Below, one piece after another: positions 440 to 22,329 of a DNA stretch of 36,880 nucleotides. The notes under the pieces are model-generated. The model was not told the origin of the DNA. It did not search any database and worked only from the letters and a program-made list of their open reading frames with translations. This DNA comes from Nanobdellati archaeon. Lineage in GTDB: Archaea > B1Sed10-29 > JAGVWA01. The stretch spans positions 1 to 36,880 of the forward strand of contig JAGVWA010000020.1 in the NCBI GenBank assembly GCA_018304505.1. The letters run 5' to 3'. Each line of letters opens with the position of its first letter. The first letter of the stretch is position 1. The translations under genes were made by a program, and so were the position numbers.

Positions 440-1573
440 ATGGGAATTCGTGGGCAGGTGGCTGCGGAATACGTTCTCTTAGTCGGCCTGCTGTTGCTTT
501 TAATCACGCCGTTCCTGTACTTCGGTTTCCAGAGTTCTGGCCAGCAAAGCAGGCTGCTGCAGGCCGAAAAACTCGTTTCGGATCTGGCGCAGGCTGCTGA
601 TTACGTGTATTCGCAGGGGGCCGGTTCCAGGGTGACGGTTTCTGGCATTATTCCTGGCGGTGTGACTTTTGAGGACTCGTATATTGGTAAGCCGCCCAAC
701 GCTACTGGCAACATTACCTCGAAGATCATTAATCTCGTGTTGCAGATAAACGGAATTGATCATGATGTTTGGAAGGAAACTGGTGCGGAGTTGTGTATTA
801 GCAGTCAGTGGCCTAGCGATTTTGGCGGCGCCTTTACAGGACCGGTTTTGTTTACGATAGAGGTTGAGGATGAGGGTTGCGTTTCAATTCTTCCGTTCGA
901 CGTGGGCTTCTTTGCAGAGCCACCAGTCATTGTTACTGATTGTATTACAGTGGGCGCGTCAGCGGGTTTCGTGATTACCCTAACCAATAATGATGAGGCA
1001 AACCCGGTAACGATAAGCGTTTCCGGTAGCGGCGCAGGCAGCAGCTTCATGTCGTTCAACAACACGAACGTGACGATTCCGGCAGACGGCACGGAAAAAA
1101 TACTTATGACGATAACGATTCCCACGGGGACATCGTTGGGTGTGCACTTTGGAAGCGTGGTTTTCCAGAGCAACGACACGGTTCAGGAAGTGCCGGTTGA
1201 CATCCTTGTTTGCGGCACGACTGATGGAAACCAGACAACAGAAGAGTGCTGTAATGCAACGTTGCTGAATTACACGATAGGAACGTTCGAGGATGAGGCT
1301 TGCTCTATTGCAGAAACAGTTTTTTACAAGCCAAGGACGACGGTTTTCAGCAGCACAGGTTGGCTTCCAGCTTCTAATCTGACCCTGGATTTAGATCACT
1401 CGAATACGAGCTCGGCAATTGGTTTCCCGGTCATTATCGCGGCAAATTCCACTGGTGGATTTAGTTACACATGGAATCCTGCCTTGCAGCCTGCCGATAA
1501 TTACTCAGTTTCGGTGACTGATGGCAACATCACAAGGTCAAATAATTTGGTGGTTAATGCATGTCCAACATAG
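440..1573 (+). CDS. Class III signal peptide minor pilin-like protein with Ig-like C-terminal domains
   Basis: N-terminus RG|QVAAEYVLLVGLLLLLI (Gly cleavage site, +5 Glu, hydrophobic helix); beta-rich Thr/Asn/Ser C-terminal region with many N-x-S/T sequons. Confidence 0.8.
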   Translation: MGIRGQVAAEYVLLVGLLLLLITPFLYFGFQSSGQQSRLLQAEKLVSDLAQAADYVYSQGAGSRVTVSGIIPGGVTFEDSYIGKPPNATGNITSKIINLVLQINGIDHDVWKETGAELCISSQWPSDFGGAFTGPVLFTIEVEDEGCVSILPFDVGFFAEPPVIVTDCITVGASAGFVITLTNNDEANPVTISVSGSGAGSSFMSFNNTNVTIPADGTEKILMTITIPTGTSLGVHFGSVVFQSNDTVQEVPVDILVCGTTDGNQTTEECCNATLLNYTIGTFEDEACSIAETVFYKPRTTVFSSTGWLPASNLTLDLDHSNTSSAIGFPVIIAANSTGGFSYTWNPALQPADNYSVSVTDGNITRSNNLVVNACPT

Positions 1574-4500
1574 CTCGAAGTTTGATGGTTGCCATGTTAG
1601 TGGTCTTGCTTATGTTTACAGGTATTGCTACTGACGCGACGATGTCTTACTATGACAGCGGTTCATCGTCAAGCCCAAAAATTCGACATTGGGATGAAGT
1701 GTCATGGTCAAGCGTGAGTAGTGCCGTGAGTACCGGGAACAACGATAACTTTCATGTTTTGAAAGCTTCACCTGTAAAGGATGAATTCATCCTCGCAGTT
1801 TCTGATTCTAGTAAGGATGTTAATGTGCAGGTGTACAACGGCTCTTCATGGGGAAATTTGGTTGAAGTGAGTATAGGCATCAATGATGCGGAGCAGCGTG
1901 GTTTTGATGTTGCTTATGAGTCGTTGTCTGGGGATGCGGTTATTGCTTATGGTGATGATCCCACGGATGGGATGTATTATCGTGTGTGGAATGGTTCTTC
2001 GTGGTCTTCGCAGGCGACGGTTTTTACGCACCCTAGTTCGGAGCCCGAGTGGGTTTCTTCGGCTTCGAATCCTTTTAGTGATGAGATTGTTGTTGTGTCG
2101 TTGCATCAGAATGGTGATGCGTATGCTGTGGTTTGGAATGGGAGTGCGTGGGGGGGTGAGTTTGAAATTTCTCCTAAGATTACGGATATTGATTCTACGT
2201 CGCCAGATGTTATGCCAATGGACGTGATTTATGAACAGCAGTCGGGCAGGGCTGTTGTGGTGTATGCAGAGGCTGTTACCACGCCACGTTACAGGATTTG
2301 GAATGGTTCTTCATGGAGTGCCGCGTCGAGCTTGAATTCTGTTGGATCTAGCGACGTGAAATTCATAAGGTTGGCCACAGACCCGAGCTCTAACACGATT
2401 TTGATGGGCAGCCTCGACGGTGGCAGCGATTTGAATGTGCAGGTATGGAATGGTAGCTCCTGGGGGACGAACACTGAATTGGATGACAGCATTGAAGGGA
2501 GCGTCGAAATGCACTTCGATGTTGCTTTTGAATCGCTATCTGGAAAGGGAATGGTATTGTTTGGCGACTTAGATCAGAATACCGCCGAGTATTATACATG
2601 GACTAGTGGTGGCGGTTGGAGTGCTTCGGCCCTTGCAGCAAGTGGAAATGATGACCCCCAGGTAGTCGAGTTAGAGGCCGACCCGAACAGCAACGAAATT
2701 TTTGGAATGATCGTTGACGTGCTCCTTGACGTGTCTGTTCAGAGGTGGACTGGTTCTGCATGGGTTGATTTCCAGGCAGTGGAACTTGGATCCAAGGCCA
2801 ATATGCACCCATTCGACATTGAATTCAAGCGTTATGTGCCGTCTGTTGCCAACGCTGTCACATTTGTTGACCCAACGCCTGCTAACGGATCTACAGTTAT
2901 CGTTGACAACGTTTTCATTAACGTTACGACGAACTTCGCCGGTTCAACAGGTTTGTTAGAGTGGAACGGCGTTAATGAATCAATGACTGTTGGCAACGCG
3001 ACAAATTTCTATAAAAGCAAAACTGGCCTTGCTAATGGTGTTTACACTTACCGTGTTTATGTGAACCATACAAATGGAACGTTCTATGTGTCTGAAACGC
3101 GAACTGTAGAAATCAGCGTGCTTGTGGTGTTTAATGGTACGGCGATGATGTCTTATTATGATGCTGGGCTCTTAGCGTTTCCGCAGATCCGCAGGTATAA
3201 TGGAAGTTCCTGGGGTGCTGCGGATAGTGCATTTGATACCGGCGGCAATGACAAGTTCCACGTGCTGGAATCTGCAACGACACGAAATGAGTTTGCTTTG
3301 GCTGTACAGGATGGAAGTGCTGATGTTAATGTGCAGATCTTTGATGGCGTTTCATGGGGTAACCTGTTGGAAGTTACTACAGCAGTAGATGAAACTGGCC
3401 AGAGGGGATTTGACATGGCCTATGAAACACTATCTGGAGACTTAATTATAGCTTACGGCAGCAATAACGACAACGAAGTCAGGTACAGGGTCTGGAACGG
3501 CAGCACATGGACTAGCGAGGCCTTTGCCATCAAGAATTCTAGCGCTACAACCGAGGCACAGTGGATAAGGCTTGTACCAAGTCCGTTAACAGATGAGGTC
3601 ATCCTAGTTGCAGGTCATGAAGATGGCGACGGCTTTGTCCAGGTCTGGAATGGAAATTCGTGGACAAACAACATTGAAATTTCAGCAAATCTTGAAGGCC
3701 TAGAAGGAACGGACACTGACACAATGGCCTTTGATGCAATTTATGAACAGCAATCGGGTCGCGGGGTAGTTGTTTACGCAGAGGATGGGTCAAGCAGTCC
3801 GAAATACAGGACATGGAATGGTTCATCTTGGTCTTCTGAGTTGAGCTTGAACAGCGTTGGTAGTAGTGATATGCGCTGGATTCGTTTGGCTGCAGACCCT
3901 GGCTCGGACAGAATCATTATGGCGAGTGTCGATTCCAGCAGCGATTTGAATGTGCAGGTTTGGAGTGGGTCTTCTTGGGGAAGCAACACTGAGCTTGATG
4001 GAAGCATTGAAAGTTATACAACAAGGACGTTTGACGTCGCTTTCGAGACGAGCAGTGGCACTGGCTTGCTGTTGTTCGGCGACTCGGATCAGGATAGGGC
4101 AGAGTACTATACATGGACTAATACTAGCGGATGGAGCACATCCGCACTTGCAGCCGCTGGCACCACTGATCCAAAAATGGTCCGCTTGGTTTCGAGCCCT
4201 GCTAGTGATGAAATGTTTGGAATGATCATTGACGATGGCAGTGACGTTAGTGTGCAAAGGTGGACGGGCTCTGCATGGACTGATTTTTTAGAGGTCGAAA
4301 CAGGCTCGATAGCCCTCAATTTCCCATTCGCAATCGTTTATGGCAAGGCGAATGTGACTCCACCAGCTGTTGGAAACCAGGTTACGTTCGTTGCGCCAAC
4401 CCCTGCAAGCGGCGCGGACTTGAATGCAACATCGTTAGTAATAAACGTCACGACAAACTTCAACGGCTCTACGGGAATTCTTGACTGGAACGGAACAAAT

Positions 4501-5940
4501 CAGACGATGGTCAATGCTAGTGCTACGAATTACTATCAGAACAAAACTGGCCTTGCTAATGGTCTTTACACTTACCGTGTTTATGTGAACCACACAAATG
4601 GAACGTTCTATGTAACAGAGGCACGCAACGTCACGATAAACTTCACGTTTGACTATAATCCTGGTTCCCTGACGGTCTCGCAGAAAAATCTGACAAATTG
4701 CCCAACCAGGATATGTATTAAGATCACGAAGAGCAAGCCCAGTACGTACAGCAAGATCCTACTCGATCCTGGGAACGTGACGCAGCTGCAGAACCTGAGC
4801 ATTTCAGAGGACGAGCACATCGAGTATTATAACTTGACGACGACTGACTTGACGGGAAACTGGACAGTCCAGGTTTCGGAACTGTTCTGTCGGCTAGACC
4901 TTGAATTCAACTTAACTGTGCTTGATCAACCCGTCAACGAAACCGGCGACGGAGAACCGCCGGATGACGATGATTGTACAATATTCGCTATTGATGACGA
5001 TCAGGATGAGTTGCAGGTCATCGACCTGTTCGGGTCGCTGAACATCACGATTATTGGTGAAACTAGAACGAGCAGTGGGAAATTGATTGACGAGATCGAG
5101 TCACTAGAAATGATTGGCGAAGATCTCTACGGCGCAACAGACATTGGAGGTAAGAATTCAAGGTTCTACAAAATCAACCCCAAAACAGCACAGACAACCC
5201 TCATCGGCGATACTGGGTATGAGGACATTGAAGGCCTTGCATATGATGAAATCAATGGCATAATGTATGCAATTAGCGGCGCCACAGATCAACTTTTAAC
5301 AATAAACATAACCACCGGCGCTGCTACCGCGATCGCTAACATAAGCCTGAACGTGAAAATCGAAGGCCTGGCTTACGACGCAACAGAGAATGTGTTGTAT
5401 GCGGCTGACGACTCGACGAATAAGTTGTTAAAGATCAATATAAGCACTGGCATTGCAACAGATTTGGGGCTTATCCAACTTGATGGTGAAACGTTGACGC
5501 ACATTGAGGCGCTCGAAATTCTACCCTCCAGCATGTTGATCGGAGCAAACGACAAGACCGGAGTAATAGTGTCGATAAGCAAAACCAACGCCGTAGCAAC
5601 GAGACTGACGCCCGACAACACACACCCGGATTATGAGGGCATGGTGTGCTCACTAACGGTGTCTCTTGACGACATCTGCGTTGACAGGGACAACGATGAC
5701 ATTTGCGACAACATTGACGCGTGTGTTGATGAAGACGATGACGGTGAATGCGACGATGTCGACATGTGCATCGACGATGACGACGATGATGACTGTGATG
5801 ACGTTGACGACATATGCATAGATAGGGACCATGATGAAGATTGTGATGACGTTGACGCTTGCGTTGATGAAAACGATGACGGCAAATGCGACCTTGGGGT
5901 GTGTGATGACGATGACAATAATGATTTCTGCGATGGCTAG
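1561..5940 (+). CDS. Large secreted putative adhesin (two WNGSSW-repeat propeller-like modules, two Ig-like domains, C-terminal propeller-like region, Asp/Cys-rich tail)
   Basis: Sec-type signal peptide; repeated V/IWNGSSWS blades; internal duplication of about 508 aa; GLAYD-type repeats near the C-terminus; six CxDxD/NxxxxCD repeats; no C-terminal TM. Confidence 0.85.
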   Translation: MSNIARSLMVAMLVVLLMFTGIATDATMSYYDSGSSSSPKIRHWDEVSWSSVSSAVSTGNNDNFHVLKASPVKDEFILAVSDSSKDVNVQVYNGSSWGNLVEVSIGINDAEQRGFDVAYESLSGDAVIAYGDDPTDGMYYRVWNGSSWSSQATVFTHPSSEPEWVSSASNPFSDEIVVVSLHQNGDAYAVVWNGSAWGGEFEISPKITDIDSTSPDVMPMDVIYEQQSGRAVVVYAEAVTTPRYRIWNGSSWSAASSLNSVGSSDVKFIRLATDPSSNTILMGSLDGGSDLNVQVWNGSSWGTNTELDDSIEGSVEMHFDVAFESLSGKGMVLFGDLDQNTAEYYTWTSGGGWSASALAASGNDDPQVVELEADPNSNEIFGMIVDVLLDVSVQRWTGSAWVDFQAVELGSKANMHPFDIEFKRYVPSVANAVTFVDPTPANGSTVIVDNVFINVTTNFAGSTGLLEWNGVNESMTVGNATNFYKSKTGLANGVYTYRVYVNHTNGTFYVSETRTVEISVLVVFNGTAMMSYYDAGLLAFPQIRRYNGSSWGAADSAFDTGGNDKFHVLESATTRNEFALAVQDGSADVNVQIFDGVSWGNLLEVTTAVDETGQRGFDMAYETLSGDLIIAYGSNNDNEVRYRVWNGSTWTSEAFAIKNSSATTEAQWIRLVPSPLTDEVILVAGHEDGDGFVQVWNGNSWTNNIEISANLEGLEGTDTDTMAFDAIYEQQSGRGVVVYAEDGSSSPKYRTWNGSSWSSELSLNSVGSSDMRWIRLAADPGSDRIIMASVDSSSDLNVQVWSGSSWGSNTELDGSIESYTTRTFDVAFETSSGTGLLLFGDSDQDRAEYYTWTNTSGWSTSALAAAGTTDPKMVRLVSSPASDEMFGMIIDDGSDVSVQRWTGSAWTDFLEVETGSIALNFPFAIVYGKANVTPPAVGNQVTFVAPTPASGADLNATSLVINVTTNFNGSTGILDWNGTNQTMVNASATNYYQNKTGLANGLYTYRVYVNHTNGTFYVTEARNVTINFTFDYNPGSLTVSQKNLTNCPTRICIKITKSKPSTYSKILLDPGNVTQLQNLSISEDEHIEYYNLTTTDLTGNWTVQVSELFCRLDLEFNLTVLDQPVNETGDGEPPDDDDCTIFAIDDDQDELQVIDLFGSLNITIIGETRTSSGKLIDEIESLEMIGEDLYGATDIGGKNSRFYKINPKTAQTTLIGDTGYEDIEGLAYDEINGIMYAISGATDQLLTINITTGAATAIANISLNVKIEGLAYDATENVLYAADDSTNKLLKINISTGIATDLGLIQLDGETLTHIEALEILPSSMLIGANDKTGVIVSISKTNAVATRLTPDNTHPDYEGMVCSLTVSLDDICVDRDNDDICDNIDACVDEDDDGECDDVDMCIDDDDDDDCDDVDDICIDRDHDEDCDDVDACVDENDDGKCDLGVCDDDDNNDFCDG
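3018..4613 (+). repeat. Near-identical 72-bp repeat pair (3018-3089 and 4542-4613) in the two Ig-like domains
   Basis: CAAAACTGGCCTTGCTAATGGT...GGAACGTTCTATGT with 2 mismatches, offset 1524 nt. Confidence 0.9.
5677..5937 (+). repeat. Six Cys/Asp-rich thrombospondin type-3-like repeats
   Basis: CVDRDNDDICD, CVDEDDDGECD, CIDDDDDDDCD, CIDRDHDEDCD, CVDENDDGKCD, CDDDDNNDFCD. Confidence 0.8.
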
Positions 5941-7313: not shown

Positions 7314-8384
7314 ATGATAAACGGAGGCAAGGGCTTCATTTTCACGTTGGCAGCAACCGCGGCATTCATTATGATTTTAGCAGCCATGGTGTTCTTCATT
7401 ATCAACCAGGCGCAGAAGAGCCCCCTGCTCATTAATGTCAAGCAGAACATGGGCCTTCAGGATTCTGTTTTCAAGCTTTTGAATGACAAGCTCATGTTAA
7501 ATCATTCACGGACAAGCAACACCTATATGATTACAGAGGCGTATGCCCCGACCAAGCAGTCGTCGTTGGCAACAAAGGTGGCGTCGATAGCCGCGATTGC
7601 AAATACCACAGCATTCCGGTCTGGCCTGAACTTCTCGTTCAACAACCAGGGCTTCTCGCTGCTGAACCTGAGGTCAAAGGGTTTCTCCTATTACTGGTTG
7701 TCCAACACGGATCTGCTGATTGAGGCGAACTCAAGCCATGAAAACTTCACAGCGTTGAATTTGTCTTTCTCCACAACCGCGAACTCAAACAACATAACCA
7801 ACAACTGCTCAGGCAGCGGTAATGTAACAATCACCGTGGCTTCAAATAATCAACAAGCGTCAGCGACACCAACAGGGAGCTGTACGATAACCATCAATTA
7901 CCCAAGTAATTCGATTGCCGTGAACTACATCAGCGACAATTCCTGGAACGTGTCGTTCGCTGGCATGCCAGACAACGCAGTAATCACGGCTAACATTTCA
8001 GTAAGCCCAGGCACGAATTTCGCAGACTTCAGCAGCATAATTTACAGGGCAACGCTGACGACATCCAACCCTGGAGTTACGGAACCAACATACCCTGGCA
8101 CAACTGCTGCGATAAAATACTTTGGAAACGTCACTGTGGAAGCCCAGGTATACCAAGTAATCGTTATTGATTATGACAATGATTCGGTGTATGAATCGGC
8201 ATACTTTGACGTGGATCAGGACAACGCCTTTAACAGCAGTGCAGACCTTAAGTTAGTGAGGCGGGGCGTAGCAATATATTTAAACAACAGGGTCCTTCTA
8301 GTGGACAGTGGCACTGCGGAAATCACCTTACTGAGTAAGCTTGGCGTTTTCGCAAAACGAGGGGAAGTTACAGTGATTCGATGA
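7314..8384 (+). CDS. Large minor pilin-like protein, class III signal peptide
   Basis: Start moved to ATG 7314 after a GGTGAT RBS; KG|FIFTLAATAAFIMILAAMVFFII; Asn/Ser/Thr-rich extracellular domain; DYDNDS and DVDQDN motifs. Confidence 0.75.
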   Translation: MINGGKGFIFTLAATAAFIMILAAMVFFIINQAQKSPLLINVKQNMGLQDSVFKLLNDKLMLNHSRTSNTYMITEAYAPTKQSSLATKVASIAAIANTTAFRSGLNFSFNNQGFSLLNLRSKGFSYYWLSNTDLLIEANSSHENFTALNLSFSTTANSNNITNNCSGSGNVTITVASNNQQASATPTGSCTITINYPSNSIAVNYISDNSWNVSFAGMPDNAVITANISVSPGTNFADFSSIIYRATLTTSNPGVTEPTYPGTTAAIKYFGNVTVEAQVYQVIVIDYDNDSVYESAYFDVDQDNAFNSSADLKLVRRGVAIYLNNRVLLVDSGTAEITLLSKLGVFAKRGEVTVIR

Positions 8385-9127
8385 AGGAAAACATTGAGAC
8401 GAAGGCTGACCAGCTGTATAGCATGGTGATAAAGCAGAAGAAAATAAGCATTAGCGAGGTAGCCAAGGTCTTGGACATGGAGCCGCAGCTTGCAGAAAAA
8501 TGGGGCAAGGTGCTGGCAGAGGACAAGTTCATAAGAATGGTTTACCCGTCAAACATCCTGCAGGAGCCGTACCTTGAAGCTGTGGCAGAAATTGCTGAAG
8601 CCCCAAAGACCAAAAAATCAGACAACATCTTCGACATCTTGAGAAAAGGCCTCGTTGGTTTCGAGGAATGGAAGGAGGAAAAAATGCAGATGAAGGCAAA
8701 GCTCGAGAAAATAGAGCAGACGGAAAAGGAGTTCTTCAAAAAGCACAAGGAGGAAATTAAGGCGCAAACAGGGATGAAACACAGGGCCAAGGCGCTCCCA
8801 AGCAGCCTCATGGACAGGCAGGCCGCCAAGAGGCTTGAAAACCTGAGGCTCGTCAATGAAGCAGAAGCCAAGAAGGCAGAAGGCGCACTACTGGAAATGT
8901 ACAACGCAGGCCTTGTTGGAAAAAAACTCAGCGATGATGAACTAAAGCAGGTCCTCAGTGATCCGCAAAAGGCGATTGAAAATGCGCAAGCGCCAGACAA
9001 GGCAAAAGAAAGCATGGACAAGCGATATGTAAAAGCGATATCCGCAAGGGCAAAACAAGTAGTGACAAAACAGGTGGTCAAGAGCAAACCAGAGAAAGCA
9101 CCCCGGATAAGCAGCAAAAAGAAGTGA
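8381..9127 (+). CDS. Pilus-locus cytoplasmic protein with N-terminal wHTH-like domain and Lys/Glu coiled coil
   Basis: IETKADQLYSMV..KKISISEVAKVLDM..LAEKWGKVLAEDKFIRMVYP; translationally coupled to both neighbours. Confidence 0.7.
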   Translation: MKENIETKADQLYSMVIKQKKISISEVAKVLDMEPQLAEKWGKVLAEDKFIRMVYPSNILQEPYLEAVAEIAEAPKTKKSDNIFDILRKGLVGFEEWKEEKMQMKAKLEKIEQTEKEFFKKHKEEIKAQTGMKHRAKALPSSLMDRQAAKRLENLRLVNEAEAKKAEGALLEMYNAGLVGKKLSDDELKQVLSDPQKAIENAQAPDKAKESMDKRYVKAISARAKQVVTKQVVKSKPEKAPRISSKKK

Positions 9128-10650
9128 TGGAGAAGGGATTAATAATGGATAAAGAGTTAGAGGGCTATGAAATAACCGCAGCGGGCCTGGTGGCAAGGAT
9201 CTCGATCGTGGACGAGGGAAAGTTCGTGCCGCGCTACAAGGTAACGTTTCCCCAAATCGGTCACGCCACGTTAATGATTCTGGATAGCGTCAGGGACGAA
9301 TTGATTAAGCAGACAACGGTAAAGGCCAAGGAGATACTTGATCCAAAAATTGCGAGGATCATACAGAAGAGGTTCGCTGACAAGGCCGAGGAATTAGTGT
9401 CGCGTTATTTTCCTGGCATTGATACAATAAGCAAGGGCGAGCTCGTTGGCCTTCTCGTGAACGACATGGTTGGCCTTGGAGAAATCGAGGTGCCCCTAAA
9501 TGACGACGCCCTCGAGGAAATCGTAATCAACAACGCTGCAGAGCCCCTGTGGGTTTACCACAAGCGCTACGGCTGGTTGGTGACTAACATTACTTTGGAG
9601 GACGAGGAAAAAATAAAAGACTATGCAAACCTAATCGGCCGGCGGGTTGGAAGGCAGATAAATACCCTGACACCGCTTATGGATGCTCACATGCTCGAGG
9701 GAGACCGTGTCAACTCAACCCTGTTCCCGATTTCTACAAAGGGCAACACGGTAACAATTAGGAAATTTGCGAGAAAACCGTGGACTGTGACAGACCTTAT
9801 TCAACTGAAAACCTTTAATGATGAAATTGCGGCCTTGCTCTGGCTGGCAATGCAGTATGAATTAAACGTGCTTGTCAGCGGTGGAACCGGTAGCGGTAAG
9901 ACGAGTGCGCTCAACGTGCTCATGCCCTTTGTTCAGCCAAATCAGCGCATCTTGTCAATTGAAGACACGCGCGAATTGAACCTGCCGAGTTATCAGCATT
10001 GGGTTCCAATGACGACAAGGGATCCGAATCCCGAGGGCAAGGGGGAAGTAACAATGCTTGACCTGATGTTGAATGGGCTCAGGATGAGGCCCGACCGGAT
10101 AGTTGTCGGTGAAATCAGAAAGCGGGCAGAGGCCGAGACCTTGTTTGAAGCGATGCACACCGGCCACGCGGTATACTCAACGCTGCACGCAGATCGTGCT
10201 GAACAGGTCAAGCGAAGGCTGACAACGCAACCAATAGACATTTCAGAAGCCCTTCTGGAATCATTGCACATCGTGCTGGTGCAGTACAGGCACCGTAGGC
10301 TGGGCATAAGAAGAACCCTTGAGCTGGCAGAAGTAGTCCCGGTCGGCGCCGGGGGTGATGAAGTTACCATAGACATGCGCACGCTTTACAGGTGGAAGCC
10401 GCGTCAGGACACTATTATGAGAGAGAAGCCGTCTGTGCGGCTATTCGGCGAAATCGAGTCACTGACGGGTTTGCTTGAGTCGGAAATCAAAGAAGACCTG
10501 GAACAAAAGAAGTCAATTTTGAAGTGGATGGTTAACCAAAACATAAACGACGTTGACGTGGTCGGGACTCTGATGGCCAGGTACTACCGTGACCCCAGCG
10601 ATTTAATCAAGCTCGCAAGGATTAATAAGCCATTCACGCCCGAAGAATAG
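9124..10650 (+). CDS. CpaF/TadA/VirB11-family type IV pilus assembly ATPase
   Basis: Walker A GGTGSGKT, SIEDTREL, LRMRPDRIVVGEIR, His box TGHAVYSTLHA; alternative starts 9127/9145. Confidence 0.95.
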   Translation: MMEKGLIMDKELEGYEITAAGLVARISIVDEGKFVPRYKVTFPQIGHATLMILDSVRDELIKQTTVKAKEILDPKIARIIQKRFADKAEELVSRYFPGIDTISKGELVGLLVNDMVGLGEIEVPLNDDALEEIVINNAAEPLWVYHKRYGWLVTNITLEDEEKIKDYANLIGRRVGRQINTLTPLMDAHMLEGDRVNSTLFPISTKGNTVTIRKFARKPWTVTDLIQLKTFNDEIAALLWLAMQYELNVLVSGGTGSGKTSALNVLMPFVQPNQRILSIEDTRELNLPSYQHWVPMTTRDPNPEGKGEVTMLDLMLNGLRMRPDRIVVGEIRKRAEAETLFEAMHTGHAVYSTLHADRAEQVKRRLTTQPIDISEALLESLHIVLVQYRHRRLGIRRTLELAEVVPVGAGGDEVTIDMRTLYRWKPRQDTIMREKPSVRLFGEIESLTGLLESEIKEDLEQKKSILKWMVNQNINDVDVVGTLMARYYRDPSDLIKLARINKPFTPEE

Positions 10651-18472: not shown

Positions 18473-19075
18473 TTATTTTCCCTTCATCAACTCTAGAATG
18501 CGCTCGAATTTCTTAGCCTGGTAAACCGCGTCCTGCAGCGCATTGTGGTTTTGGCCCCGTTCAGGTATTTTGATTTCATTGATACCCGCGTTAACATTCC
18601 CAGTTGCGCCTCTGTACATTGAACTCATGTCCTCGCCGCTGTACCCGAGCGGGTTCTCCTTGTTGTAAAAGTTGTCAAAGTACCAGGTACTGAACATGCC
18701 GTCGAACTTTATGGGTGCAGCCACTTCGACGGGCCTGAATCCCTGCGTGTTCTCCAAAACCCATTTTGCATAATCTGCCATTGCGTCTTCTGGTTTAGAG
18801 CCCGTTTTCTCAAGCGCCCCGAGAACTGCAAGAGGATCGAAATTCGGATTCTTTGGGTTGTATTCAGGCAAGTGCTTTAGGTCTTCGAGGCACTGCAGGC
18901 CCAAGCAGCCGATCCTGATGGCCTCGAGAACGTAGTTCATGTTCAACGGTTTCAACTCACGGTAGAATTGCACACCAGTATTCCCGACAACGCAGGCCCC
19001 CAATGACAGCATTGAATACCTTCCGGGCGTGGGCCCCGAGGCCTCAACGTCGAAGGAAACGTATTTCTTTTCCAT
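18473..19075 (-). CDS. DEDDh-family 3'-5' exonuclease
   Basis: ExoI FDVEASG, ExoII KFD, ExoIII HNALQDA. Confidence 0.85.
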   Translation of the reverse strand: MEKKYVSFDVEASGPTPGRYSMLSLGACVVGNTGVQFYRELKPLNMNYVLEAIRIGCLGLQCLEDLKHLPEYNPKNPNFDPLAVLGALEKTGSKPEDAMADYAKWVLENTQGFRPVEVAAPIKFDGMFSTWYFDNFYNKENPLGYSGEDMSSMYRGATGNVNAGINEIKIPERGQNHNALQDAVYQAKKFERILELMKGK

Positions 19076-19130
19076 AGCAGGGTATATGTATGAGAATGTT
19101 ATTATAGCTTTACTTCGCTTTATTTAGTGT

Positions 19131-19481
19131 ATGGCGAAACGCGATGCTCCGCGCAGGCGGCAAAAACCGAATTGGGTGAAGGACCTCGCACTGAAACGGA
19201 TAAGGCGGCTTTTCGAGCTCGCGGAGCAGGAACTCGAGGTGCACCCAGATCGAACAAGGCGTTATGTTGAACTTGCGCGGAAGCTTTCTACAAAATACAA
19301 CACAACGATTCCGAAGGAATTGAAGGAAAAGATGTGCAAGCAGTGCAATTCCCTGTTGATAGAAGGGAAATCGATGCGTGTAGAGCAAGTGTCGAAGGTG
19401 AATTATGCGCTTGCGGTGTGCCTGAACTGCATGAACGCGAAAAAGCGCTTTTTGGGAAGTTGGCTTCGGCAGCAGCTTTGA
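19131..19481 (+). CDS. rnp4: Ribonuclease P protein component 4 (Rpp21)
   Basis: ALKRIRRLFELA...RRYVELARKLSTKY, CKQC...CLNC Zn ribbon; upstream of S19e as in the conserved archaeal cluster. Confidence 0.9.
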   Translation: MAKRDAPRRRQKPNWVKDLALKRIRRLFELAEQELEVHPDRTRRYVELARKLSTKYNTTIPKELKEKMCKQCNSLLIEGKSMRVEQVSKVNYALAVCLNCMNAKKRFLGSWLRQQL

Positions 19482-19539
19482 TCTATAATCACATACGAAG
19501 TCTGAACCAGCGGGATGTGGCTTTCCGAGAGCAAAAAGC

Positions 19540-19547
19540 TTTATAAA
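19540..19547 (+). promoter_or_regulatory. TATA box for the S19e operon
   Basis: A-rich BRE-like AAAAAGC followed by TTTATAAA. Confidence 0.5.
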
Positions 19548-19648
19548 CCCAGAAAGACCAAAAGAAAGGGAACAGCTTGGTTCTATACGAAAAGCTAGAA
19601 AATACACACAAAAACAACAAATTTTGATGTTTTACCGAGAGTGAATAC

Positions 19649-20368
19649 ATGGTTTCAGTGCTAGAAGTCAATGCACAGCAGCTCATAAACAACGTGGCAG
19701 AAAAGCTCAAGACACAATACAAGATACAGCAACCCGCGTGGGTAGGCTATGTTAAGACCGGCGTGCACAGGGAAAGGCGGCCCCAGAACGAGGACTGGTT
19801 CTTTGTTAGGAGCGCCTCAGTGCTTAGAAAACTTTACATTGAAGGTAACACCGGAGTGGGCAAATTCAGGGCCTGGTATGGTGGCAAGCAAACCAGAGGG
19901 GTGAAACCAGAACACCACGCTGACGCGTCAGGCAACATCATAAGGAAGTCACTCCAGTCCCTGGAAAAAGCAGGCCTGGTAAAAAAGGAAAACGTTGGTA
20001 GAATCATTACGCCGGAAGGCAGAAAACTGCTTGATAAGGCAACACTGGAGCTGCGCGGAAAGCGCGAGAAGGCAAAGCCAAAGCTCGAATTCCAGAAACC
20101 GAAGAAAAAACCGCAAGCGCAGCCAAAGGCGCCAGCAAAGCCACAGAAAATCGAATCAGAGGCTAAGACTGAAAAGAAGGAAGTGAAGAAGAGTGCAGCA
20201 AGAAAACCTGGACCAGCTAAGGCAGCAGCGACTAAACCAGCTGCTACAAAGTCAGCAAAACCAGGAACTAGCAAGACAGCAGGCAAAACTGCAAGTAAGG
20301 CAGGCGCTAAGAAAACTACTAAGCCCCCAGGCGCAGGAAAGGCTAGCAAACCTAAGGCTAGCAAATGA
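19649..20368 (+). CDS. rps19e: 30S ribosomal protein S19e with a ~100-aa Lys/Ala/Pro-rich C-terminal tail
   Basis: WVGYVKTGVHRERRPQNEDWFFVRSASVLRKLY, YGG, SGNIIRKSLQSLEKAGLV, GRIITPEGRKLLD. Confidence 0.95.
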   Translation: MVSVLEVNAQQLINNVAEKLKTQYKIQQPAWVGYVKTGVHRERRPQNEDWFFVRSASVLRKLYIEGNTGVGKFRAWYGGKQTRGVKPEHHADASGNIIRKSLQSLEKAGLVKKENVGRIITPEGRKLLDKATLELRGKREKAKPKLEFQKPKKKPQAQPKAPAKPQKIESEAKTEKKEVKKSAARKPGPAKAAATKPAATKSAKPGTSKTAGKTASKAGAKKTTKPPGAGKASKPKASK

Positions 20369-20516
20369 GGAAATGGCCGAGCAAATCGAAGCCCTGATAG
20401 TCTACATGCATCAGGCTGGCCAACTCAAGGCCCCACTACAAGACGGGGACCTGAAACAATTGCTGCTAACAATCAACGCACGCAACACAAGAAAAACTAA
20501 AATAACGAGAAAGTGA
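20193..20516 (+). CDS. PDCD5-family (MTH1615-like) DNA-binding protein, overlapping S19e in the +1 frame
   Basis: LDQLRQQRLNQL...LRKLLSPQAQERLANLRL...AEQIEALIV...LKQLL...KITRK; conserved position after S19e. Confidence 0.9.
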   Translation: MQQENLDQLRQQRLNQLLQSQQNQELARQQAKLQVRQALRKLLSPQAQERLANLRLANEEMAEQIEALIVYMHQAGQLKAPLQDGDLKQLLLTINARNTRKTKITRK

Positions 20517-20520
20517 TAAA

Positions 20521-20757
20521 ATGGCGAGAAACAAATCCCAAAGGAAGAAAATGCACATTGTGAAGGCGAAGAAGACCAACAGGCGCGTACCGGTGTTCCT
20601 AGTGCCGAAAATGCGAGACCGCAATGTGTATAGGGAATCAGCACCACGCGGATGGCGCCATGGCAAGGGCCTGTTTAGCAAGATCAAGACAGCATTCATG
20701 AGAAACCTCTGGAACAGGGGAAAGCACAACACGAAGGAAAGATTCCAATTAAAGTGA
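20521..20757 (+). CDS. rpl39e: 50S ribosomal protein L39e, C-terminally extended
   Basis: MARNKSQRKK...KKTNRRVPVF...RGWR; syntenic position. Confidence 0.85.
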   Translation: MARNKSQRKKMHIVKAKKTNRRVPVFLVPKMRDRNVYRESAPRGWRHGKGLFSKIKTAFMRNLWNRGKHNTKERFQLK

Positions 20758-20763
20758 TGAACA

Positions 20764-21264
20764 ATGGCAGCTGAAGAAAAGAAAACAGATGAAGTGGGCG
20801 AAATAAAGCCGGTGACGGAACCTATGGAATCGGTGGAACAGTCAGCAGCTGAAGCAAAGGCTGCACCAGAAGAAAAGAAAGCAGCAGCATTAAAAGAAGA
20901 TCCCGAAGACAAAACACAAGCAGCAGCAAAGGAAGAACCAAAATCGGCAGTGAAGGAAGAGCCTAAATCTGCGGCGAAGGAAGAACCAAAACCAGCAGAA
21001 AAGGCTGAAGAGCGTGTCCTGACCCTGCCGCTGAGGGATGCCTGGAAATCGGCAAGAAGCAACCGTACAAAGGCCGCCATCTCGGTTTTGAAGAAACAGC
21101 TAAAGAAGCATTTCAGGCAAGAGCCAAAGATTGACAAGTCACTTAACGAAGCCATCTGGGCCCACGGGCTGCACAAGCCCCCCAGGAGGATCCAAGTCAG
21201 GGTTAGAAAAACGGCAACAGAACTCCTCGCATTTCCCGTAACAAAGACCGTGAAAAAGCAATGA
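20764..21264 (+). CDS. rpl31e: 50S ribosomal protein L31e with Glu/Lys/Ala-rich N-terminal extension
   Basis: ERVLTLPLRDAW...RTKAAISVLKKQLKKH...IDKSLNEAIWAHGLHKPPRRIQVRV. Confidence 0.92.
   Translation: MAAEEKKTDEVGEIKPVTEPMESVEQSAAEAKAAPEEKKAAALKEDPEDKTQAAAKEEPKSAVKEEPKSAAKEEPKPAEKAEERVLTLPLRDAWKSARSNRTKAAISVLKKQLKKHFRQEPKIDKSLNEAIWAHGLHKPPRRIQVRVRKTATELLAFPVTKTVKKQ
20923..20994 (+). repeat. Three 24-bp tandem units (A[AV]KEEPK[SP]) in the L31e extension
   Basis: AAKEEPKS AVKEEPKS AAKEEPKP. Confidence 0.85.
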
Positions 21265-21896
21265 TGATCAAGTCAAGCATAATGGGGTACGCGCAAGTCG
21301 GGGTATTCTGCGCAACCAATGACGAGATAACGCTTGTTCCATTATCGACACCGGCGCATTTTGTATCAACAGTCAAAAAGGTTCTAGGGACAGATGTTAT
21401 CAAGATGAATCTGTGCAACTCGCAGCTCTTGGGGCTGTTTAGCACGTGCAGCAACAGTGAAATCATAATTCCCCATATTGCACAGCAGCACGAAATCGAC
21501 ACGCTGAAGGACAACTTCAAAAAAGTCATAGTATCCGATTCTGCACTCACAGCGATTGGAAACCTCGTTGTGATGAACGACAACGTTACCCTGGTGTCGT
21601 CTGATCTGAAAAACCACAAGCAGCTCAACGCAAAACCATTCAAACTCAAAGCCACAGTGCTCATCGGCTCAGGAATCGTTGCTACTAATCAGGCATTCAT
21701 CGCGCACCCGGAAACAACAGACGCAGAGCTTGAACAGCTCAAGGACCTTCTAAAAGTGGAAGGGGACGTTGGCACGGTCAATTTCGGAAACCCCTACGTG
21801 CGCGCAGGTTTGCTGGCCAACTCCAACGGAATCATAGCAGGCAATCTCTCCAGCGGGCCAGAATTAAATAGGATAGACGACATATTCAACAGGTAG
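21261..21896 (+). CDS. eif6: Translation initiation factor 6 (aIF6)
   Basis: VGVFCATND, AIGNLVVMND, GTVNFGNPYVRAGLLANSNG...SSGPELNRI. Confidence 0.95.
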   Translation: MMIKSSIMGYAQVGVFCATNDEITLVPLSTPAHFVSTVKKVLGTDVIKMNLCNSQLLGLFSTCSNSEIIIPHIAQQHEIDTLKDNFKKVIVSDSALTAIGNLVVMNDNVTLVSSDLKNHKQLNAKPFKLKATVLIGSGIVATNQAFIAHPETTDAELEQLKDLLKVEGDVGTVNFGNPYVRAGLLANSNGIIAGNLSSGPELNRIDDIFNR

Positions 21897-21906
21897 GTGA
21901 TTTACA

Positions 21907-22329
21907 ATGGCGACAGAAGCAGAAATGGCTGAAAGGCAACGCGCAATGGAAACCCTCTCGCGGCTCAAGATGCTCGATGAGCAAAGAAAAGTAACACAGG
22001 CAAAATACGGCGAGATAGATGCATACTTCACAGAATTGACAAGGGCAAGGGAAGCGCTCGAGGAAATACAAAAGCAAAAACAAGCAACTGGAACGCTGAT
22101 ACAGCTTGGTGCAGGGGTATTTTTGAAAACCAAAACCGAGAAAACAGATACGGTCTTAGTGGACGTCGGGGTCGGCACAGTTGTCGAGAAGAACATAGCA
22201 GACACAATCGGCCTGATAAAACAGCGCGAACAGGAAGCCGCAGACGCACGCAGAGCACTGATCGGGGAAATAACCTCGCTAGAAGTTACGTACCAAGACC
22301 AAATACACAAATTGCCCCAGCAGCAATAA
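21907..22329 (+). CDS. pfdA: Prefoldin subunit alpha
   Basis: Coiled coil, LIQLGAGVFLK...VLVDVGVGTVVEK, coiled coil. Confidence 0.92.
   Translation: MATEAEMAERQRAMETLSRLKMLDEQRKVTQAKYGEIDAYFTELTRAREALEEIQKQKQATGTLIQLGAGVFLKTKTEKTDTVLVDVGVGTVVEKNIADTIGLIKQREQEAADARRALIGEITSLEVTYQDQIHKLPQQQ

Follow-up and report, generated by a model that had tools for sequence, protein, structure and literature searches.

Can the gene of a ribosomal protein run on for dozens of codons through the start of the next core gene, with selection acting on both reading frames? The question is raised by contig JAGVWA010000020.1 of the Nanobdellati archaeon assembly GCA_018304505.1; the whole stretch of 36,880 nucleotides (nt) analyzed here is referred to as the window. 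In it, the gene for ribosomal protein S19e (eS19; 19649-20368, + strand; 239 amino acids (aa), stop codon TGA at 20366-20368) extends far past its conserved core and shares its last 176 nt with a PDCD5/dsDNA_bind homologue encoded on the same strand (20193-20516, 107 aa, GTG start). The shared stretch, 20193-20368, specifies both S19e residues 182-239 and PDCD5 residues 1-58. The source genome (G000) comprises 0.92 Mb in 21 contigs, is 92.8% complete and has a guanine plus cytosine (GC) content of 47%. From comparative sequence analysis we conclude that 20193-20368 is very probably a real, selectively maintained dual-coding region that would encode a disordered, basic tail of S19e.

Both open reading frames (ORFs) belong to recognized families. 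S19e matches PF01090 (Ribosomal_S19e) over aa 4-134, that is 19658-20050, with 177.8 bits against a cut-off of 29.4 (E 1.1e-52), leaving a tail of 105 aa beyond the domain. The PDCD5 ORF matches PF01984 over aa 9-105 with 65.7 bits against a cut-off of 26 (E 5.2e-18), covering profile positions 1-102 of 106, and the shared 176 nt fall within this recognized domain. The distance between the two starts (20193-19649 = 544 = 3x181+1) places PDCD5 in frame +1 of S19e, and a PDCD5-frame stop at 20184-20186, two codons upstream, makes the GTG at 20193 the first possible PDCD5 start. The two genes form an overlapping pair of out-of-frame ORFs on one strand that share well over 60 nt and each carry a Pfam family. 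A preliminary description, made from the letters of this DNA alone, had S19e running about 100 aa past its core and some 58 of its codons overlapping PDCD5 by 176 nt in the +1 frame; the domain limits and ORF coordinates agree, and translation yields the same S19e-frame peptide that it had quoted. The non-overlapping first part of the tail (20051-20192) is a linker rich in Lys, Pro, Ala and Glu (columns ~145-185 of alignment A1). This extra linker is found only in the G000 row of that alignment and makes the G000 tail the longest version; similar linkers occur in P0002 and P0005, the two nearest database proteins, the nearer of which (P0002) is 62% identical in the core.

Codon choice within PDCD5 differs between the overlap and the part that follows it. 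As had been counted before, 10 of the 13 PDCD5 Leu codons in the overlap are CTA, the other three being CTG, and those after the S19e stop are mixed (three CTG, two CTA, one CTC and one TTG). CTA accounts for 13% of Leu codons genome-wide (491 long ORFs), which gives a binomial P of 2.7e-7 for 10 in 13, and for 8 of 83 Leu codons in the neighboring operon genes. This choice matters because CTN codons read as Ser, Pro, Thr or Ala in the S19e frame where TTR codons (TTA or TTG) would read as hydrophobic residues, and because the final A of CTA opens the next S19e codon, which then specifies Lys, Thr, Ser, Asn or Arg. In a recoding null model, the PDCD5 amino acids were held fixed and synonymous codons were redrawn 100,000 times from the usage of the 491 ORFs. 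Against this null, the S19e-frame peptide of the overlap has 16 Lys and Arg residues where 6.5±2.0 are expected (P 3e-5), no Asp or Glu (P 0.007), no hydrophobic residues (P 0.001) and a net charge of +16 where 2.4±3.1 is expected, a value reached in 0 of the 100,000 draws. Using local operon codon usage as the null gave the same outcome. The TGA that closes the S19e frame is an ordinary stop in G000, where it ends 186 of 534 long ORFs.

The same architecture is kept by relatives. The GTDB order to which the genome belongs holds 18 species genomes, all with S19e, and in 10 of them S19e and PDCD5 overlap by 131-194 nt, PDCD5 always lying in frame +1 of S19e. These ten are all the PDCD5-bearing members of one clade and belong to families f1, f2 (three of five genomes), f3, f5, f6, f7 (both genomes) and f8. 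The preliminary description had proposed comparing orthologues and had named an S19e stop before 20193 in close relatives as the outcome that would speak against it; within the clade the opposite was found, the frame staying open in all ten PDCD5-bearing members. All ten S19e stops are TGA, formed by a T-ending codon before a PDCD5 Glu or Asp codon, and in nine genomes they lie at alignment columns 61-68. In the six genomes of family f4, S19e ends at the core or after a non-overlapping tail of 25 aa. Two f2 genomes, G011 (L004; 91% complete) and G015 (L021; 80% complete), have no PF01984 match anywhere; their S19e ends 4-5 aa past the core, with L39e directly next. PDCD5, which lies beside S19e in most archaea examined, thus seems dispensable in these two organisms.

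A tree was built from the S19e core, L31e, eIF6 and Rpp21 for 28 of 32 rows, L012, L020, L029 and L030 being left out because parts of them were missing. The tree groups the ten overlapping genomes with the two that lack PDCD5 (Shimodaira-Hasegawa-like approximate likelihood ratio test (SH-aLRT) support 81) and sets apart f4 (98) and the relatives at class level (99). Each of the two genomes without PDCD5 adjoins an overlapping one (SH-aLRT 89 and 95), and the tree implies that the fewest changes would be three, namely a single gain and two events in which PDCD5 and the S19e tail were lost together. Beyond the order, none of 19 other loci with a downstream PDCD5 has an overlap with PDCD5 homology of more than 5 nt. 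Among 81 further archaeal loci an overlap was seen in only three (L045, L048 and L086), whose tails are letter-identical to those of L002, L013 and L014 and so represent genomes already counted; the other 78 have none. A scan of metagenome contigs returned a single relative (L042, 49% identity), which lacks the tail. Within the overlapping group divergence is deep: apart from one same-genus pair (75%), no two PDCD5 genes exceed 58% DNA identity, and GC content ranges from 33 to 56%. In the four closer pairs the tails are equal in length and 53-64% identical, and the cores are 71-82% identical. Third codon positions are 33% identical between pairs outside the overlap and 0.444 identical as a fraction within it, an excess to which we give little weight since it reflects in part an A/G-rich composition.

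To summarize codon choice over the clade, we pooled codons 4-44 of the ten overlapping PDCD5 genes and used 19 non-overlapping PDCD5 genes as controls. In the S19e frame of the overlapping genes there is 1 stop where 23.9 are expected, there are 9 hydrophobic residues where 46.4 are expected, and the net charge is 95 against an expectation of 38.4. The controls have a net charge of 128 (129.2 expected), 89 hydrophobic residues (90.0 expected) and 30 stops (49.2 expected), and the corresponding frame is closed in 18 of the 19. With a recoding null for each of the ten genomes, the probability of an open frame ranges from 0.003 to 0.23, hydrophobic residues are depleted at P<=0.022 in nine genomes, and net charge is raised at P<0.05 in six. 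T at third positions is found in 24 of 517 codons in the overlaps as compared with 307 of 1792 in S19e cores and PDCD5 3' parts (P 5e-15), and TTR makes up 7 of 103 Leu codons in the overlaps and 48 of 180 in the control codons. The earlier suggestion that selection acts on both frames is thereby supported on the S19e side, as the codon bias toward charge and against hydrophobicity is confined to the overlapping genes, and on the other side by the PDCD5 domain signal, which is kept.

That signal extends into the overlap itself. Full PDCD5 proteins match PF01984 in all ten overlapping genomes, and the overlapped halves alone do so in nine, six of them above the gathering score; the exception is G008, in which the overlap ends before the conserved motif. 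The invariant PDCD5 residues A47, R50, L51 and A57 lie inside the overlap. PDCD5 aligns to Sulfolobus SSO0352 (aa 4-104) and to MTH1615 (aa 28-107), and the solved chains of both contain the residues to which the overlap corresponds. An initiation signal is also retained: a Shine-Dalgarno-like GGAAGTGA lies within the S19e coding sequence at 20179-20186, 6 nt upstream of the PDCD5 start, and a short motif search gives ...GATCACCTCCT as the 3' end of the G000 16S rRNA. In all ten genomes the proposed PDCD5 start has a GGAGG-like motif before it, which ends 4-9 nt upstream in nine and in several is formed by the Gly-Gly codons that close the S19e core; the PDCD5 start of G002 is ambiguous. Downstream of the overlap, an in-frame ATG at 20373-20375 (PDCD5 Met61), a possible re-initiation start that is peculiar to G000, sits 4 nt past the S19e stop (TGAGGAAATG). 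Re-initiation there could yield a 47-aa C-terminal PDCD5 fragment.

Several other accounts of the locus have to be weighed. If a stop had been missed, or an indel introduced, close to where the S19e core ends, the overlap would be an assembly or sequencing artefact; S19e length does deviate from most archaea, long co-directional overlaps have been judged errors in surveys (in the available excerpts of PMC2478687), and 19988-20073 is covered only by run X1, which is perhaps the source of the assembly itself. But contigs from runs of other studies are identical across the overlap: those of X3 and X4, which have the same size and could be duplicate filings of a single data set, span 20119-20600, and that of X5, from another study, spans 20074-20459, in each case with 0 differences and 0 gaps. 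The identical 239-aa S19e protein is on record from four contigs. The orthologues support the sequence more strongly than these contigs do, the architecture recurring in nine other strongly diverged genomes with GC contents of 33-56%. Where other contigs cover the locus, the comparison came out in favor of the sequence, and an artefact is hardly credible. We likewise rejected assignment to misannotated long overlaps with a 3' extension by frameshift or stop mutation (class iii in the excerpted text of PMC2478687), as the extension is conserved in ten genomes and confirmed in other runs. Another account would have S19e alone translated across the overlap, the 5' half of PDCD5 being a relic and a shortened PDCD5 starting, for example, at the ATG at 20373; this start lies only just beyond the S19e stop, and the PDCD5 start site would be crossed by ribosomes that are translating S19e. 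Against this account, the ATG is not conserved (the residue aligned to Met61 is Leu, Gln or Arg in the other nine overlapping orthologues), the overlapped half that matches PF01984 in nine genomes contains the family's most conserved motif together with the four invariant residues, an in-frame stop lies close upstream of the proposed start, the Shine-Dalgarno-like motif recurs in all ten genomes, and a 47-aa remnant would miss half the domain of the solved structures. We regard a shortened PDCD5 as very unlikely. A programmed +1 frameshift within the overlap, producing an S19e-PDCD5 fusion that the overlap exists to allow, would suit the constant +1 frame in the ten genomes and the neighboring position of the two genes in most archaea examined. 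However, among the top 120 S19e relatives, 131-419 aa in length, PF01984 never stands beside PF01090 (longer proteins were not searched), and PDCD5 keeps a ribosome-binding motif and start of its own, so that a fusion of this kind is most improbable.

The alternative with the most in its favor is that the tail is translated but is a neutral by-product: the S19e stop was lost, the -1 frame of PDCD5 happens to be open and basic, and selection plays no part. The probability of an open S19e frame at this locus is 0.23 with genome codon usage and 0.25 with local operon usage, and we therefore rejected the open frame as stand-alone evidence here; the value is unremarkable because the codons of a peptide rich in Gln, Lys, Glu and Arg end in purines, and a stop in the S19e frame needs a codon ending in T. 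Net charge is not above the null in four of the ten orthologues (G001, G013, G008 and G007), because their PDCD5 amino acids already force a basic -1 frame, and the basic tail is thus in part a by-product of PDCD5 composition. In f4, where there is no read-through, the -1 frame is nearly open and very basic as well, L023, L026 and L029, for example, having no stop after the first three codons. Two lineages have lost tail and PDCD5 without obvious replacement, and so neither is indispensable. These points weigh against selective maintenance, as does the single-run coverage of 19988-20073 mentioned above, and further ones must be added: the ten overlapping genomes are kin and their cases are not independent; the group is recognized by the open frame itself, yet it comprises every PDCD5-bearing member of the clade; clade support is modest (SH-aLRT 81, from a quick search with four short proteins); codon tables for the relatives come from only 5-23 ORFs each; and among the sequencing runs listed as containing the stretch, none is an RNA run. 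A neutral tail nevertheless fails to account for codon choice that departs from the null only in the overlapping genes, with the deficits of hydrophobic residues and stops given above, where the 19 controls meet expectation for charge and hydrophobicity. It is equally at odds with the CTA excess at this locus and with a frame that stays open in all ten PDCD5-bearing clade members despite the low third-position identity elsewhere in the gene. On balance we consider a neutral tail unlikely. The overlap had been described as a real, long, same-strand one that gives S19e a new basic extension, and its retention in ten genomes and its identity in other runs uphold that description.

If the stretch is indeed maintained for both frames, expression could proceed as follows. 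Ribosomes starting S19e at ATG 19649 would find no stop past the core and would continue into PDCD5, crossing its ribosome-binding site, its GTG and its first 58 codons in the -1 frame before halting at TGA 20366-20368. This read-through would add to S19e a disordered, strongly basic tail of ~105 aa made of Lys, Ala, Pro, Ser, Thr and Gly. PDCD5 would be made separately, by internal initiation at GTG 20193 through the Shine-Dalgarno-like motif inside S19e codons, and we infer that both products, tailed S19e and PDCD5, are made. Because ribosomes engaged on S19e traverse the PDCD5 start, translation of S19e is likely to modulate PDCD5 initiation. If true, PDCD5 output tied to S19e, together with the near-universal adjacency of the two genes in archaea, would point to PDCD5 acting at the ribosome near eS19.

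The arrangement probably had a single origin in the ancestor of the clade, which lies within a Micrarchaeota-labelled order, when loss of the S19e stop or a 1-nt shift would have let S19e run into the 5' half of PDCD5. As that half is rich in Glu, Lys, Gln and Arg, its -1 frame would have been nearly stop-free and basic from the outset; either event would have immediately yielded a tail that was hydrophilic and basic, and subsequent tuning of codons would have removed hydrophobic residues and stops. Under such tuning, PDCD5 would retain synonymous codons that keep the S19e frame free of stops, non-hydrophobic and for the most part basic; examples are CTA or CTG in preference to TTR as Leu codons and the near absence of T from third positions. 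With slightly more reserve than for the locus itself, we think it probable that this is an ancient, clade-wide case of dual coding in cellular core genes, in which a basic disordered arm was overprinted on the structured 5' half of PDCD5 and the two frames have co-evolved codon by codon across seven GTDB families. In the non-overlapping PDCD5 genes of f4 (L015, L019, L023, L026, L027 and L029), the -1 frame contains hardly any stops and is strongly basic once past the first few codons, a side effect of a helix rich in Glu, Lys and Gln. A frame of this type looks like a ready-made substrate for the overprinting of the sister clade.

As a protein, S19e departs from its family in architecture, not in homology. 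Its best relatives in the PDB are S19e chains of archaeal 30S subunits (E 7e-40); among the best 60 of 69 matched solved eS19 chains, which are 139-174 aa long, none aligns past query aa 147, and at 239 aa the protein lies outside the usual length of about 140-175 aa without a long C-terminal extension. In the AlphaFold2 (AF2) model the core is folded, with predicted local distance difference test (pLDDT) scores mostly 75-95 and a last helix at aa 122-141. From ~aa 142 on there is no predicted secondary structure and pLDDT is below 60, and the tail is accordingly predicted to be disordered. It has no Pfam family at E<=10 in its 105 aa, and there is no tandem repeat in 19900-20400. The tail had earlier been called histone-H1-like. 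The resemblance holds for amino-acid composition and does not extend to homology, and linker histone H1 was rejected as a relative given the lack of any Pfam family in the tail. Lysine-rich S19e tails that do not overlap PDCD5 occur in other DPANN archaea at eight loci (L003, L005, L006, L009, L011, L012, L022 and L026) and at nine further ones, and their presence in ordinary DNA suggests that a tail is advantageous there. eS19 is located on the head of the small subunit, where the tail of the present protein may act as a flexible basic arm that contacts rRNA or other nucleic acid.

The surroundings of the pair follow the usual archaeal operon arrangement, all on the + strand: Rpp21 (19131-19481) lies upstream of S19e, and PDCD5 is followed by L39e (20521-20757), L31e (20764-21264), eIF6 (21261-21896) and prefoldin (21907-22329), as given by the ORF list and Pfam. 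Two of these neighbors are themselves extended. L31e has 166 aa, and its Pfam domain does not begin until aa 97; the N-terminal stretch ahead of it is acidic and rich in lysine and includes a 24-nt tandem repeat (20921-20998, 3.2 copies), the only such array found. L39e has 78 aa, with its 42-position domain at aa 9-49. Elsewhere in the window, a second dsDNA_bind domain (PF01984 at aa 106-196, E 1.2e-9) occurs in a 248-aa protein encoded at 8381-9127 (+), directly upstream of a gene for a T2SSE-type secretion or pilus ATPase (9124-10650) that it overlaps by 4 nt. A 1459-aa ORF at 1561-5940 (+), possibly a large surface protein, has a DUF6923 repeat at aa 1198-1298 as its sole Pfam match. In the same genome, the 16S rRNA gene (contig C15, about 18912-22044; L125, L126) is interrupted near its 3' end. 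Its Rfam match stops at 20352; a further piece, at 21162-21250, corresponds to model positions 1349-1438, and the terminal GATCACCTCCT is found at ~22034-22044, positions that imply a pair of insertions, each of roughly 0.8 kb.

Prokaryotic chromosomes are regarded as almost devoid of long same-strand overlaps between genuine genes. The S19e-PDCD5 case joins two ancient housekeeping genes, is conserved through a deep clade and carries a measurable codon-level compromise between the frames. It offers a natural system for studying how overprinting makes new protein sequence in cells, how, in organisms whose genomes are very small, a ribosomal protein acquires a disordered basic extension, and how internal initiation operates when ribosomes arrive from an upstream frame. 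It also concerns annotation, as software that trims or flags overlaps of this kind would call S19e or PDCD5 wrongly in these genomes. No earlier description of the overlap was found among the papers listed in full-text searches on archaeal S19e overlaps, archaeal ribosomal-protein overprinting and DPANN ribosomal extensions, a scope that leaves subscription-only papers and supplements outside.

Among known systems that resemble it is viral overprinting, in which a new coding stretch arises when an older gene comes to be read in an alternative frame; the younger product is disordered, with a biased composition, and the older gene has a distorted codon usage. The S19e-PDCD5 overlap differs in lying on a cellular chromosome, in having ancient core genes as both partners and in adding an extension rather than a new protein. 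The C-terminal domain of histone H1, which is rich in Lys, Ala, Pro, Ser and Thr, disordered and highly basic, resembles the S19e tail in composition; the tail is without homology to it and without the linker-histone globular domain. The S19e tails of other DPANN archaea can be compared as well, belonging to the same protein, following directly after the core and being of low complexity and rich in lysine. Unlike the tail described here, they end at or before the PDCD5 start (<=5 nt overlap), cost extra DNA and constrain no second gene.

Overlaps between neighboring cellular genes provide two further comparisons. In a 2008 survey of 338 genomes, each of the 715 co-directional overlaps that exceeded 60 bp was judged an error, and the longest accepted as real was that of holD-rimI, at 56 bp (according to the excerpts available of PMC2478687). 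As in S19e-PDCD5, the holD-rimI overlap of Enterobacteria is co-directional, sets the 3' end of the upstream gene over the 5' end of the downstream gene and is conserved among related genera; at 32-56 bp it is far shorter than the 131-194 nt found here, which is about three times the longest overlap so accepted (same excerpts, PMC2478687). The classic exception that involves a ribosomal protein is the nested rnpA-rpmH pair of Thermus (Feltens et al. 2003, as cited in the available portion of PMC9841429). It too is same-strand, out-of-frame and cellular, combines a ribosomal protein gene with a conserved housekeeping gene, and has both products made from one stretch of mRNA, as outlined in that portion of PMC9841429. 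In Thermus, rnpA houses the complete L34 gene at its 5' end, and a single initiation site serves both genes, whose starts differ by one nucleotide (PMC9841429, same portion). In the archaeal S19e-PDCD5 pair, by contrast, a 3' end lies over the 5' half of the downstream gene, the starts are separate and ~540 nt apart, and the overprinted product is a disordered extension instead of the whole protein of the Thermus pair.

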